A stretch of DNA of 10,767 bases from Vulcanimicrobiota bacterium (GTDB lineage Bacteria > Vulcanimicrobiota > Vulcanimicrobiia > Vulcanimicrobiales > Vulcanimicrobiaceae). Made by a program: the position numbers and the translations under genes. Shown one piece after another: positions 1-4,751 of the stretch; position 1 is the first letter of the stretch; each line of letters starts with the position of its first letter. The notes under the pieces were generated by a model, which searched no databases, had not been told where the DNA came from, and saw nothing but the letters and a program-made list of their open reading frames with translations. The DNA is taken from contig PKZK01000157.1 in the NCBI GenBank assembly GCA_003133025.1, forward strand, positions 3,252 through 14,018, in the 5' to 3' direction.

Positions 1-1109
1 TCGAGGAGGCTGCGGCCCAGCGCCGGCACGCGGCGCAAGCGCTCCGAAACGCGCGTCGAGACGAAGGGCACGTCGAGCATCAGGTCCACCGCGCGGCCCA
101 AGCGGCGACGGCCACGCAACAGGCGCGCGCGGCGCGCCGCATAACCGGCACAGTAGCGCGCTTCGCGCGCCGGATCGGCAAGCGATGCAGCGATCGTCGC
201 GGCGGCGTCGAGCCCGCCACGCAACGCCATGAACACGCCCGAACCCGTGAACGGGTTGAGGAAGCCGCTCGCATCGCCGGCCAACAGCGCACCCGGCGCC
301 GCGGCGGCGATCACGTCGAAGGCCAGGGGACCGATCGCGACGCGCGGACCGACGCGCGCCGCGACGTCGACGCCGCGCACGCCGCGCGCGAGTTGCGCGG
401 CCGTGCCGCGCATGCCCTCGTCGACGGCCGCCGACCACTCGCTCAATTGCGCTTCGCGCACCACGACCATGAGGTTGGCCAGGTCCGGTCCCAGCGGATT
501 GAGCGCGAAATACGCGCCGCCGCCGACGTACATCTCCACCCGCGCGCCGAGATCGCCGAAGCCGCGATAATGTCCGCCGAGCGCAAAGCGCTTCGGCCCG
601 CGCGAGGCGCGAACGAGCCCGAGTTTGCGCGCCGTGAGCGAGCCGCTGCCGTCCGCGCCGACCACGAACCGCGCGCGCAACTCGCGTTCGTCGCCCGCCG
701 GATCGCGCACGCGCACGCCCGCCGCACGGCCTCCGTCGAAGAGGATATCCTCGGCGCGCGCGAGCAGCACGCGGGCTCCGGCGGCGCGCGCGGCGTCGAG
801 CAAAAACGCGTCGAGGTCGGCGCGCGGCAACGAGCGCGCCGGTTCGCTGAAATCGAGTTCGAGCGGCTCGAGGCCGGGCGGCACGAGCCGGATGCCGTTG
901 AGCGGTACGCTTCGCGCGCGCACGCCCTCGCCCAGGCCCGCATCGTCGAGCAGGCGCAGCGCGCCCGCGTTGACGTACTCGCCGCAGGCTTTGGTGCGCG
1001 GAAAGGTCGCGCGCTCGATCACGGTCACCGCGATGCCGCGTCGCGCGAGGCCGAGCGCACAGATCGAGCCGGCCGGGCCGCCGCCGACGACGAGGACCTC
1101 AGAGTCCAT
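1..1109 (-). CDS. FAD-dependent oxidoreductase, geranylgeranyl reductase/FixC-like family (3' partial, runs off window start)
   Basis: Not in the ORF track because there is no stop inside the window. Manual translation from ATG at 1109 gives MDSEVLVVGGGPAGSICALGLARRGIAVTVIERATFPRTKACGEY (GxGxxG Rossmann motif, FPRxKxCG), then RADLDAFLL, FVVGADGSGS and LLAGDASGFLNPFTGSG (second FAD motif). The frame is open for 369 codons to the window edge. The start overlaps the methyltransferase 3' end by 11 nt. Confidence 0.92.
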   Translation of the reverse strand, partial: MDSEVLVVGGGPAGSICALGLARRGIAVTVIERATFPRTKACGEYVNAGALRLLDDAGLGEGVRARSVPLNGIRLVPPGLEPLELDFSEPARSLPRADLDAFLLDAARAAGARVLLARAEDILFDGGRAAGVRVRDPAGDERELRARFVVGADGSGSLTARKLGLVRASRGPKRFALGGHYRGFGDLGARVEMYVGGGAYFALNPLGPDLANLMVVVREAQLSEWSAAVDEGMRGTAAQLARGVRGVDVAARVGPRVAIGPLAFDVIAAAAPGALLAGDASGFLNPFTGSGVFMALRGGLDAAATIAASLADPAREARYCAGYAARRARLLRGRRRLGRAVDLMLDVPFVSTRVSERLRRVPALGRSLL

Positions 1110-1773
1110 CGTGCATCATCATCCGGAAGAACGGCTGCGGAACGGCGCTGGGCAGATTCCAGCCCGCGGAGCGTGCGAGGTCTTCGGCCTCGGCCGGGGT
1201 GTAGGCGCGCTGGACCGAGAGCGGACCGTCGTGACGCGTCAACGGGCTCGTCGCAAAGAGCGCGACGTAGAGGCGTGAAGCGGCGTGCGCGAGCGGCGAG
1301 CGGCTCAGATCGCAAACCAGCGGCGTGACCCGCGCGACGCGCCGCATCTCACGCAGCACCGCGATCGCCTCCTCGGGCTCGAAATGGTGCAGCGCGAGAT
1401 TACAGGTCACGATGTCGAAGCTCGCGTCGGGAAAAGGCAACGACGCGCCGTCGCCGCGGGTGAAGCGCAGCGCCGCATCGCCGTGCGAACGTTGGCGGGC
1501 GATGTCGAGCACGGTCTCGCTGCGATCGAGGCACACGATCTCGAGGCGCCGGCCGCGGCGGCGCGCCTCGGCCAGCAGGGCGCGCGGAATGTCGCCGCTG
1601 CCGCAGCCCACGTCGAGCAGCCACTCCGCCGGCCGCGCGAAGACTTCGCGCAGCACCGGCGCCACGCCGCCGAACCAGCGATTGGCGCGTTCGATGTCGT
1701 CGAAGTTGCGCGCCAATTCGGCCGGATCGACGCGCGGATCGTCCATCAATTCGTCGGCCGTGACGCGCTGCAT
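1099..1773 (-). CDS. Class I SAM-dependent methyltransferase (224 aa)
   Basis: Motif I LLDVGCGSGD, acidic end of strand 2 (CLDRS), and GDGASLPFPDASFDIVTCNLALHHF. The N-terminal ELMDD...NRWFGG and C-terminal HDGPLSVQRAYT resemble the methyltransferase subfamily typically encoded beside FAD oxidoreductases and type III PKS genes. Confidence 0.92.
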   Translation of the reverse strand: MQRVTADELMDDPRVDPAELARNFDDIERANRWFGGVAPVLREVFARPAEWLLDVGCGSGDIPRALLAEARRRGRRLEIVCLDRSETVLDIARQRSHGDAALRFTRGDGASLPFPDASFDIVTCNLALHHFEPEEAIAVLREMRRVARVTPLVCDLSRSPLAHAASRLYVALFATSPLTRHDGPLSVQRAYTPAEAEDLARSAGWNLPSAVPQPFFRMMMHDGL

Positions 1774-1783
1774 CAGCGCATCC

Positions 1784-1799
1784 CGCGGCTCGCGCCGCG
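1784..1799 (-). other. GC-rich stem-loop with GNRA tetraloop between ferredoxin and methyltransferase
   Basis: Minus strand reads CGCGGC-GCGA-GCCGCG (6-bp perfect stem). There is no U-tract, so it is not a canonical intrinsic terminator. Confidence 0.4.
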
Positions 1800-1815
1800 C
1801 CCGCCGCTTAGACCG

Positions 1816-2061
1816 CTAGACTTTCTTGAAATAGTCCGCGTTGATTTCGATGTAGTTCTTCCACTTGTCCGGAAGATCGGCATCGGCGTAAATCGCTTCG
1901 ACCGGGCAGGCCGAGACGCAGGCGCCGCAGTCGATGCAGACCTCGGGGTCGATGAACAACATCTTGTCGTCATCTTTTCCGTGGATGCAATCGACCGGAC
2001 ACACGTCGACGCACGACTTGTCCTTCGTACCGATACAAGGTTCTGTGATCACGTAGGCCAT
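1816..2061 (-). CDS. fdxA: Dicluster ferredoxin, 7Fe ([3Fe-4S][4Fe-4S]) type, short form (81 aa)
   Basis: [27 protein letters not shown] (C-x7-C-x3-CP) and [21 protein letters not shown] (CxxCxxCxxxCP), the signature of FdxA/Azotobacter FdI-like 7Fe ferredoxins. It lacks the long FdI C-terminal extension. Confidence 0.95.
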
Positions 2062-2241: not shown

Positions 2242-4191
2242 ATGACCACGCTCTGCGAAACGTGCGGGCAACGTCCCGCGACCGTTCGAGATTTCACGCT
2301 GCGTTCGGGCTCTTGGGTCGAAGCGGAGGTCTGCGACAGTTGCGCCCGCCGCCGCCGCACCTCGGCGCTGCCCGTCGTGGGCTCGGCGCTGGCCGCCGTG
2401 GCGCTCGCGGTAGGGACCACCTTTGCCATCGACCGCCTGACCCGCAATCCGGAGCGCGAAGCGCAGCCCGGCAGCGATCCGCGCGAGTGGACCAAGCGTC
2501 TGCGCGGCGGCTCGCCCACGCTCGCGGCGTACTCGCGCGATTTGACCGCCGCCGCCCGCAACGGCGAACTCGACCCGGTCATCGGCCGGGACGACGAAAT
2601 CGAACGGGTCATCGCGATCCTGGCGCGGCGCAGCAAGAACAACCCGGTGCTCGTCGGCGAACCCGGCGTGGGCAAGACGGCGGTCGTCGAGGGCTTGGCC
2701 CAACGCATCGCGCGCGGTGAGGTTCCGGCAGTATTACGCGACAAGCGCGTGCTCTCGCTCGCCTTGGGTCCGCTCGTTGCCGGCACCAAGTATCGCGGCG
2801 AATTCGAAGCCCGCGTCAAGCGCATTCTCGACGAGGTGCGGCGGTCGGCGCGCGAGATCGTGCTCTTCATCGACGAACTCCATACGCTGGTCGGCGCCGG
2901 CGCGGCCGAAGGATCGCTCGACCTCTCGTCGATGATCAAGCCGGAACTCGCCCGCGGCGAGTTGCAGTGCATCGGCGCGACCACCTTCGACGAATACCGC
3001 AAGCACATCGAGGCCGACTCCGCACTCGAACGGCGCTTCCAACCCGTGACCGTGGCCGAGCCGACGATCGAGCAGACCGTCGCCATCCTGCGCGGACTCA
3101 GCAGCAAGTACGCCGTGCATCACGGCGTGACGATCGACGACGCGGCGCTCGAGGCGGCCGCATCGCTTGCGGCGCGCTACATCGCCGACCGCTTCTTGCC
3201 CGACAAGGCGATCGATCTGGTCGACGAAGCCGCGGCCTCCGTCGCTTTGCGCGGCGGCGTGTCGGTGAGCGTCGAAGACGTCTCGGGCATCGTCTCCAAG
3301 TGGACCGGCATCCCGCAAGGCTCGCTCGACGAAGCGCAGACGCGCAGTTTGCTGGCGCTCGAGAGCGCGCTCGGCAAGCGGGTCATCGGTCAATCCGAAG
3401 CGATCCGTTCGGTGGCCCAAGCGATCCGGCGCGGCCGGGCCGGCCTCAAGGATCCGCGCAAACCGCTGGGCGGATTCCTCTTCGTGGGCGCGAGCGGCGT
3501 GGGCAAGACCGAACTCGCCAAGGCGCTGGCCGGCGAACTCTTCGGCACCGAGGATGCGATCGTGCGCATCGACCTCAGCGAATACACCGAATCGCACACG
3601 GTCTCGCGTCTGCTCGGCGCGCCGCCGGGATACGCGGGTCACGACGAGCCGGGCCAATTGACCGAGCCCGTGCGCCGCAGGCCGTACTGCGTGGTGCTCT
3701 TCGACGAGTTTGAGAAAGCCCACGGCGACGTGGCCGCGATCCTGTTGCAGATCCTCGACGACGGACGCGTGACCGACTCGAAGGGCCGCACCGTCGACTT
3801 CCGTCACGCGATCGTGATCCTGACCAGCAACGCGGATCCCACCGAACTCGAGATGTTCATCCGGCCCGAGTTGCTCAACCGCATCGACGACATCGTGCGC
3901 TTCCACGACCTCGACCTCAGCGACATCGGCTCGATCGTCGAACTGCAGATGCACGAAGTGGCCAAGCGGCTCGGCGCGTTGCACATCACGATCGCCTTGA
4001 GCGAGCCGGCGCGCGAATTCTTGGCCAAGGAGAGCGTGGCCGCCGGCAGCGGCGCGCGCTACGTCGCGCGGACGATCGCGCGCTTCGTGACCAACCCGCT
4101 CTCGAGCGCCATCCTGCGCGGCGACATCAAAGAAGGCGGCAGCGCCAAGGTCGAGTTGCGCGGCGAGATGATCGACGTGATCGCCGCATGA
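2242..4191 (+). CDS. Atypical class I Clp/Hsp100 AAA+ ATPase (649 aa): ClpE/McsA-like Zn finger + hydrophobic helix + two AAA+ domains, no middle domain, no IGF/L loop
   Basis: NBD1: [22 protein letters not shown], pore loop [43 protein letters not shown]2: [38 protein letters not shown]. Start placed at ATG 2242 (MTTLCETC) because ClpE/McsA-type zinc fingers begin at the N-terminus and an SD-like GGTGA precedes it. The longer 968-aa ORF overlaps real opposite-strand genes. Confidence 0.93.
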
Positions 4192-4751
4192 ACGTCGCGG
4201 CGTTGGGCCTCGCGGCGACGCTGCTCGCCGCGACCGCGCCCGCGGTGCACACGCTGCCCGGCGGCGCGGCGCGCGCGCTCACGGTCGGCTTCGGATTCGT
4301 CACGCTGCACCAAACGCAGACCGCGGGCACGCTCGCCGGCATCGACGTGCACATCGGCGACTTGCCCGGCTGCTATCGGCTCAGTTTCGTGCCCGGCGAC
4401 CCGTCGAAGACCTCGACCGTGCGCATGGCCAAAGGCGGCGACGCGGGAGCGGCCGGCTGTCCCGACGGTCCCGCACCGGAATGGGTCGTGCCCGGCGCAG
4501 AGGCCGAAGCGATTGCCGCCGTGGTGCGGGCGTGGAGCAACGGCGCGCTGCCCGGGGCGCCGAGCCCCGACTTGATTGCCGCCGAGACGTTCTCGGTGAC
4601 GACGAGCGTCGTGCCCGAGGGTTCGAACGCGCCGGAACCCGGCACGATCGAGGTCGGCATCGTGCCCCAGCCCGCCAAGGCGGGCGTGTGCCCCAGATAC
4701 GATTACGATCCTGCGAGCGGCGAAATCGCGAAGCTACCCTCGACCTGCTGA
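4188..4751 (+). CDS. Hypothetical putative secreted protein (187 aa, 4 Cys)
   Basis: ATGA overlap with the Clp stop codon, GC-rich third positions like neighbouring genes, and a hydrophobic N-terminus [19 protein letters not shown] ending in A-x-A (no basic n-region). It fills the gap to the convergent gene. No family recognised with confidence. Confidence 0.75.
   Translation: MNVAALGLAATLLAATAPAVHTLPGGAARALTVGFGFVTLHQTQTAGTLAGIDVHIGDLPGCYRLSFVPGDPSKTSTVRMAKGGDAGAAGCPDGPAPEWVVPGAEAEAIAAVVRAWSNGALPGAPSPDLIAAETFSVTTSVVPEGSNAPEPGTIEVGIVPQPAKAGVCPRYDYDPASGEIAKLPSTC

Follow-up and report, generated by a model that had tools for sequence, protein, structure and literature searches.

The window analysed here, the whole stretch of 10,767 nucleotides from a Vulcanimicrobiota bacterium, contains a gene whose product is assigned by both Pfam and Foldseek as a two-domain Clp/Hsp100 ATPase; the two AAA+ domains, with their Walker A and B motifs and arginine fingers, place it in class I of the Hsp100/Clp proteins (Table 1). 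The start codon is supported by the full-length orthologs, which begin a few residues before the first cysteine; as the orthologs start at the finger, in-frame upstream extensions to positions 1285 or 2131 are ruled out. An internal start behind the hydrophobic helix, which would yield a soluble isoform, was also rejected, a ribosome-site-like match being found in only 1 of 37 orthologs. The reading frame that follows the ATPase gene was set aside as a partner, having neither a Pfam nor an NCBIfam match and no place among the conserved neighbours. One DNA run, possibly from the source sample, spans positions 1996-2682 with three differences; contigs near-identical to 2693-2907 and 3545-3824 occur in three RNA libraries, two of which resemble one data set, with none of these contigs lying over the helix, and such matches do not show transcription.

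Table 1. Features of the ATPase gene and its surroundings (positions in the window)
Feature	Position	Strand	Basis
Ferredoxin, SAM methyltransferase and FAD oxidoreductase genes, divergent from the ATPase gene	1-2061	-	
Gene, 649-aa class I Hsp100/Clp ATPase, separate subfamily	2242..4191	+	ORF; Pfam; tree
Cys4 finger, McsA/ClpE/ClpG-N1 type (C5, C8, C31, C34)	2254..2343	+	profile match
RRRR, end of finger helix, run not conserved	2347..2358	+	alignment
Uncharged Gly/Ala-rich 24-residue segment, predicted helix, non-amphipathic, candidate membrane anchor	2359..2430	+	alignment, fragment model
Basic flexible linker to NBD1	2431..2514	+	alignment
Short basic amphipathic helix PREWTKRLR; in families f1 and f2, missing in f3	2479..2505	+	alignment, model
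NBD1 core: Walker A, pore loop KYRG, Walker B, Arg pair, all intact	2656..3036	+	alignment
M-domain site: spacer of only 24-29 residues	3226..3315	+	vs ClpA 28, ClpC 85, ClpB 148-157
NBD2: Walker A, pore loop GYAG, Walker B, Arg finger, sensor 2	3487..4059	+	alignment
ClpP-docking loop site: 9 residues, without xGF/xGL motif	3823..3882	+	comparison with host ClpC
187-aa ORF, signal-peptide-like start, overlaps ATPase stop by 4 nt	4188-4751	+	

The motor was compared with that of 37 orthologs, retrieved with the whole protein as query, from three families of the class (f1, f2 and f3). All 37 retain the aromatic pore loops of both rings (Y184 and Y464), the Walker B motif of NBD1, both arginine fingers and sensor 2; the Walker A motif of NBD1 served for picking the ortholog reading frames, and its own count is complete by construction. 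The Walker B glutamate of NBD2 is kept in 31 of 37 and the sensor-1 asparagine in 29 of 37, all losses falling outside f1: the glutamate is replaced by aspartate in six of the eight f3 orthologs and kept in two, and the asparagine is present in 0 of 5 f2 orthologs. Outside f1 (loci L025-L037), NBD2 has drifted, whereas NBD1 stays intact. The M-domain is absent, since the spacer at its site counts 24-29 residues as against 85 in ClpC and 148-157 in ClpB; the coiled-coil M-domain of ClpE, with 81-85 residues in the single-wing forms, is lacking by the same measure. The ClpP-docking motif, xGF or xGL, was found in 0 of 37 orthologs, where the loop is 9-13 residues long; host ClpC retains its IGF loop, and ClpP was found in 30 of 31 class genomes. 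Thus, the protein is a two-ring Hsp100 with intact pore tyrosines and with neither an M-domain nor a ClpP loop; like other class I Hsp100 proteins, it would form a hexamer with ATP-driven threading. In its own genome, the single strong clpP match is split in two pieces (G000:C19:689-1082), possibly by an assembly error or a frameshift.

The protein scores below every NCBIfam cut-off for ClpA, ClpB, ClpV, ClpG and ClpK: 803 bits against a cut-off of 1232 for the ClpB model TIGR03346, 676 against 993 for the ClpA model TIGR02639, and 624 against 1900 for the ClpG/ClpK model. Databases name family members ClpC; the family has none of the tandem Clp_N repeats, M-domain and IGF loop of ClpC, nor the long M-domain of ClpB, nor the Clp_N repeats and ClpP loop of ClpA. 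Nor is the protein a ClpE, with which a preliminary description of this DNA had compared it, as it lacks the M-domain and the ClpP loop. A 44-row tree was drawn from 17 of the 37 orthologs, 15 host ClpB and ClpC proteins and 12 plasmid references, none of them annotated as ClpE. In it, the family stands as one clade (99/99), separate from the host ClpB and ClpC proteins, and its branching follows the host families; the deep branches single out neither ClpC nor ClpB as the parent of the motor. Clp ATPases of about 595 residues from lactobacillus plasmids (L094, L096), which have almost no N-domain and match the query in one piece, sit on a long separate branch.

A profile of the N-terminal module matched 302 of the 331 genomes of the class (281 of 296, 5 of 5 and 16 of 30 by family) and, elsewhere in the phylum, 4 of 69 genomes, all weakly; the named relatives belong to Ca. 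Eremiobacteraeota, Vulcanimicrobiaceae and Vulcanimicrobiota. Against 1.84 billion representatives, the same profile gave 96 matches, sorted by eye into 34 family members or fragments and 62 other finger proteins; two of the latter have a segment with an insertion energy (dG, see below) under 1, and neither has an AAA+ match. The longer proteins that bear the module, all 120 among the matches listed, carry AAA+ domains. A record titled Alphaproteobacteria contains the family's own sequence together with its neighbours and was not counted as spread outside the class. The open-access titles and abstracts retrieved in our literature search include none that deals with this family; alignments supplementing the ClpG and ClpE papers may be relevant to the comparison of fingers. 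Pfam gave no convincing family for 33 N-termini, and the ESM Atlas, queried with residues 1-95 of the homologue P0071, returned unnamed clusters with a best score of 0.83 and no lead.

Over its first 40 residues, the protein matches the McsA, ClpE and ClpG fingers (profile E 0.0057 to the ClpE type), with putative metal binding and four cysteines that are invariant among the orthologs. ClpG is reported to bind aggregates via Val17 and Leu21 of its finger (10.1101/2023.08.31.555675); these positions are occupied here by Asp17 and Arg21. A bulky hydrophobic residue at position 17 is found in 0 of 36 family members (Asp in 25 of 36), as against 44 of 51 other McsA/ClpE-type fingers with the same spacing, which argues against aggregate capture of the ClpG kind; position 21 is Arg or Lys in 20 of 23 full-length hairpins. 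Hence, to judge from these residues, the finger probably does not sense aggregates in the manner of ClpG. The finger hairpin is shortened in 13 of 36 members, and in one subclade (L011-L023) it has gone from 22 to 14-19 residues with the four cysteines retained. A structure search with a fragment model gave a best Z of 4.8, with ClpG N1 at 3.9, and nothing clear for the helix. McsA was considered as a partner and discarded, since 14 of 14 f1 genomes gave no match; an mcsA-like gene does lie directly upstream of clpC in an f2 genome (L222, G025:C74).

Behind the finger, the preliminary description had noted an uncharged segment following RRRR and had proposed it as a transmembrane anchor. The segment is real and runs from residue 40 to 63, two residues beyond the 42-63 given there (nucleotides 2347-2430 correspond to residues 36-63). 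No other stretch of the protein is as hydrophobic (Kyte-Doolittle 19-mer 2.08, the next being 1.13), and this hydrophobicity is conserved: the helix is retained in 37 of 37 orthologs across the three families, with an uncharged run of median 24 residues (22-26 in most), and alignment columns 44-63 hold no D, E, K or R in any of them. The hydrophobic moment is low (median 0.09) with no 100-degree period, so that the helix is not amphipathic; G47, A49 and G58 are nearly invariant, and the residues at G47, A48, A49, A52, A54 and G58 are small in 95-97%. The full AlphaFold2 model leaves the helix unpacked on the ATPase (pLDDT <50 for residues 42-90), and a fragment model predicts one free continuous helix, residues 45-68, with no kink and a modest pLDDT of 55-67.

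Would such a helix enter a membrane? Insertion energies were predicted on a position-dependent scale of the Hessa type, re-implemented for this analysis; a test segment of 3 Leu and 16 Ala, for which about -0.01 is expected, gave -0.01. The 37 orthologs range from -1.15 to +0.69 kcal/mol, with all 37 below 1, 20 below 0 and 17 above 0; the range is the same when the three orthologs from genomes flagged unpublished (G020, G018, G036) are left out. By comparison, 20 anchors of TatA/B, AtpF and YtxH, taken from five class genomes, fall between -2.49 and +0.93, seven soluble proteins of the window between 1.18 and 4.05, and the N-domains of 98 Hsp100 proteins outside the family at 2.28 or higher (27 reference proteins, 3.18-9.30; 71 further ones, 2.28-12.17). 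None of these 98 approaches the helix. The protein itself scores +0.48, a borderline value on the shoulder that separates the membrane mode of its proteome from the soluble one; of 2442 predicted proteins, 27% lie at 0.5 or lower. Since the single value is borderline, it is conservation that carries the case for a membrane segment: together with the calibration on the 20 anchors, it sustains a membrane-compatible helix, and the proposed anchor stands to that extent, weakened by its own insertion energy. The 120 environmental homologues all score below 1, but they were retrieved with this region as query.

A soluble function of the helix has to be weighed against this. It might bind hydrophobic patches of misfolded or aggregated proteins, or pack above the ring into a bundle with the helices of the five other subunits; the protein would then be a stand-alone cytosolic disaggregase, as are ClpG, ClpL, or ClpE when it works without ClpP. 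The corresponding segment of ClpE, described earlier as a mere soluble linker, is disordered. Yet ClpE is reported to disaggregate without its finger, whereas a Leu/Phe stretch that directly follows the finger is required for this activity and for aggregate targeting (PMC13125188); this, the strongest point in favour of a soluble helix, keeps alive the substrate-binding helix that the preliminary description had listed among its alternatives. An LP-aromatic/aliphatic motif occupies the same place here, the position-specific conservation of Gly and Ala suggests close packing, and the insertion energies are marginal. The ClpE segment, however, has few hydrophobic residues and is no charge-free helix of 20 columns, and the non-amphipathic character of the helix means that, free in solution, it would be non-polar on every exposed side; the 98 other Hsp100 N-domains offer nothing near it. 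We consider a soluble helix unlikely, although it is the main alternative to a membrane tether.

If the helix does lie in the membrane, the question of topology arises. According to the preliminary description, the RRRR ahead of a single-pass helix would, by the positive-inside rule, point the ATPase outward, away from its ATP. The tetrad is present in this protein, and in 28 of 37 orthologs the net charge is greater N-terminal to the helix; however, four consecutive Lys/Arg residues on that side are a clade-specific trait that no more than 4 of the 37 share, an RR pair being present in 16, which makes the paradox weaker. Counted over 15 residues, Lys and Arg are more numerous on the N side in 17 of 37 orthologs and on the C side in 8, with 12 ties. 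The 30 residues after the helix contain a median of 6 Lys/Arg in 36 orthologs, which are kin and not independent, so that no p-value is attached (5.5 over 34 rows without the three unpublished genomes). The median is also 6 for the 20 TatA/B, AtpF and YtxH anchors, which face the cytoplasm in the case of TatA/B and AtpF and presumably also in that of YtxH. It is 3 both for random soluble windows and for 248 proteins of this genome that a rule selected as signal- or anchor-bearing, 6% of these having 6 or more. Net charge over 18 residues did not separate the family from the exported controls. Such a cytoplasm-like C flank makes an outward-facing ATPase unlikely. The N tail of 33-47 residues, with its Cys4 finger, carries 3-9 Lys/Arg (median 6). 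Thus, both flanks look cytoplasmic, to judge from their composition, which would fit a monotopic anchor or a soluble helix; a crossing with the N-terminus outside appears possible but awkward.

In that last arrangement, the ATPase would be cytoplasmic, as in Msp1, and the Cys4 finger periplasmic, where it might sense redox state or metal. Positive charges hinder the export of an N tail, and the tail here is long and basic, whereas the 20 control anchors mostly have short N tails that end in an acidic residue; moreover, the relatives of the finger in McsA, ClpE and ClpG are cytosolic. Against these objections stand the uncharged run of 22-26 residues within a continuous predicted helix, the resemblance of the C flank to those of TatA/B and AtpF, the charge distribution in f3, where the N flank is weak (mean 1.25 Lys/Arg in 15 residues) and the C flank stronger (2.9), and the Gram-negative envelope with a periplasm reported for a cultured member of the phylum (PMC9758169). 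On balance, we regard such a crossing as quite unlikely.

The paradox taken literally, that is, a type II signal-anchor with the finger inside and the ATPase rings in the periplasm, is very improbable. The periplasm is not known to contain an ATP pool, whereas the ATP-binding and hydrolysis residues of NBD1 are invariant. The higher net charge on the N side and the folded N-domain would suit a signal-anchor, as would the Gly/Ala/Ser content, which resembles that of the organism's signal sequences (0.47 in controls). However, the C flank is twice as basic as in exported proteins, the region after a signal or anchor being usually neutral or acidic (PMC12190922), and no export signature is conserved, with a peptidase site (small residues at -3 and -1) in 6 of 37 orthologs and a Tat-like twin-arginine motif in 2 of 37. 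Equally improbable is that the ATPase sits on polyhydroxyalkanoate granules, held in their surface by the helix, with both ends cytoplasmic. PhaC is found in 25 of 31 class genomes, and the cultured member is reported to make such granules (PMC9758169); but three genomes that are 95-98% complete (G079, G025, G034) carry the ATPase with no PhaC match, two others (G035, G200) carry PhaC with no match to the family, and no pha gene is found among the conserved neighbours.

The upstream regions bear on the regulation of the gene. In 21 of 23 f1 orthologs (17 exact), a search within 60 nt of the start finds a motif GAAAC-N16/17-SGTA at a distance of 9-18 nt; among control windows, 4 of 680 contain it. 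Because the motif was read from these very genes, it was tested elsewhere, and was found upstream of yccA/Bax1-I in 10 of 16 genomes as compared to 0 of 48 controls. In this genome, gene-proximal matches number 6 with a spacer of 16 and 5 with a spacer of 17, versus 0-3 at 18 other spacers, and include ones before genes for an ECF sigma factor, YccA, a TPM protein, DUF4126 and DUF2807 proteins and an aspartyl protease. Four complete genomes contain 19 exact matches: three before the ATPase, two before hslV, and one each before yccA, an M48 peptidase gene and a hydrolase gene, the rest preceding no family or plausible gene. Since HslV is cytoplasmic and is preceded by the motif in two genomes, the regulon is not purely one of the envelope. 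The motif resembles the SigW consensus of B. subtilis (PMC5758882), and an initial reading as a SigB/SigF promoter was dropped in favour of the ECF one. It appears that an undescribed ECF promoter marks a SigW-like regulon, with an ECF sigma gene followed by a likely membrane anti-sigma gene (L005-L023; G000 genes L057-L066). The window's own gene lacks the motif in its upstream region (2062-2241), even with two mismatches allowed; it has GGGTAC about 20 nt upstream with no matching -35 element, and the promoter seems to have been lost or changed here and in L004. The motif is absent in 13 of 13 f2 and f3 orthologs; a search for promoters in these families found none in three f2 upstream regions, and in four of five f3 regions the matches fell inside coding sequence. 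The neighbours differ by family: SIMPL, GlsB-type and ferredoxin genes in f1 (ferredoxin is nearby in 19 of 37 loci), MarC-SIMPL in f2, and LON-domain and NUDIX genes in f3.

Taken together, these observations lead us to favour, with slightly less than even confidence, a stand-alone unfoldase that would be tethered to the cytoplasmic side of the membrane and would extract membrane proteins without cutting them. The helix probably sits in lipid, and the ATPase almost certainly stays in the cytoplasm; with both ends inside, the helix would be monotopic or re-entrant in the inner leaflet, an arrangement that appears considerably likelier than a crossing with the N-terminus outside. Six such anchors on linkers of 24-38 residues could hold the pore entry of NBD1 toward the membrane, as in Msp1, given the ring orientation of known Hsp100 structures. 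Misfolded or stuck membrane proteins would be pulled from the bilayer uncut, with no need for ClpP or for partners of an M-domain, and passed to soluble proteases or refolded; the ATPase may form part of an ECF-sigma envelope-stress response. Against the tether speak the marginal insertion energy, above zero in 17 of 37 orthologs, and the continuous helix of 22-26 residues, which is more in keeping with a spanning anchor than with a hairpin. The lack of the promoter motif at this gene and in f2 and f3, and the drift of NBD2 outside f1, also count against the proposal. A comparison of the neighbourhoods of 37 loci revealed no conserved membrane partner gene beside the ATPase.

The quality control of bacterial membrane proteins is usually credited to FtsH and other membrane proteases, which cut while extracting. 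A tethered Hsp100 with gripping loops but no ClpP docking would, if the proposal is correct, separate extraction from degradation, as Msp1 does in mitochondria. One may go further and envisage a bacterial counterpart of Msp1/ATAD1 built on an Hsp100 motor, a core extractase tethered to the membrane, with both rings working and no protease, which would clear the inner membrane of damaged proteins and be controlled by an ECF sigma factor for envelope stress; this is a tentative and, on present evidence, rather doubtful proposition. Even if the helix is soluble, the family would represent a minimal Hsp100 that lacks the M-domain and the ClpP loop, bears a new recognition head and is mislabelled as ClpC. 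It is near-universal in an abundant soil class, and the phylum has a cultured member (PMC9758169).

Among the known systems, ClpE of Enterococcus faecalis (PDB 29HB) shares the type of Cys4 finger, the short N-domain, the two AAA+ domains and the hydrophobic residues behind the finger, but its segment behind the finger is disordered, and it possesses an M-domain, a coiled coil, as well as a ClpP loop with VGF, whereas the protein described here has an uncharged helix of 24 residues and lacks both the M-domain and the loop (PMC13125188). ClpG/ClpK (N1, PDB 8P66) has a homologous finger, and ClpG is reported as a stand-alone disaggregase (10.1101/2023.08.31.555675); it differs in the Val17/Leu21 pair, replaced here by Asp and Arg, and in an N-region of about 260 residues as compared to about 90 here. 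With ClpC the family shares the class I Hsp100 fold (Foldseek E 1e-70) and an NBD1 that is 67-70% identical, and with ClpA the lack of an M-domain, but it is set apart from ClpC, ClpB and ClpA by the missing Clp_N repeats and ClpP loop, by scores below the NCBIfam cut-offs and by its own clade. As a functional model, Msp1/ATAD1 comes to mind, with its N-terminal hydrophobic anchor, linker, pore-loop AAA+ ring, lack of a protease and extraction of membrane proteins (PMC7018516); it is not related by descent, being eukaryotic, with a single AAA domain of the meiotic clade and no folded domain before the anchor. TorsinA, a Clp/Hsp100-related ATPase, is held at the membrane in a manner comparable to that proposed here, by an N-terminal hydrophobic domain and a flexible linker (PMC5425593), but it resides in the ER lumen, has no pore loops and needs LAP1 or LULL1, whereas the protein described here possesses pore tyrosines and arginine fingers of its own.
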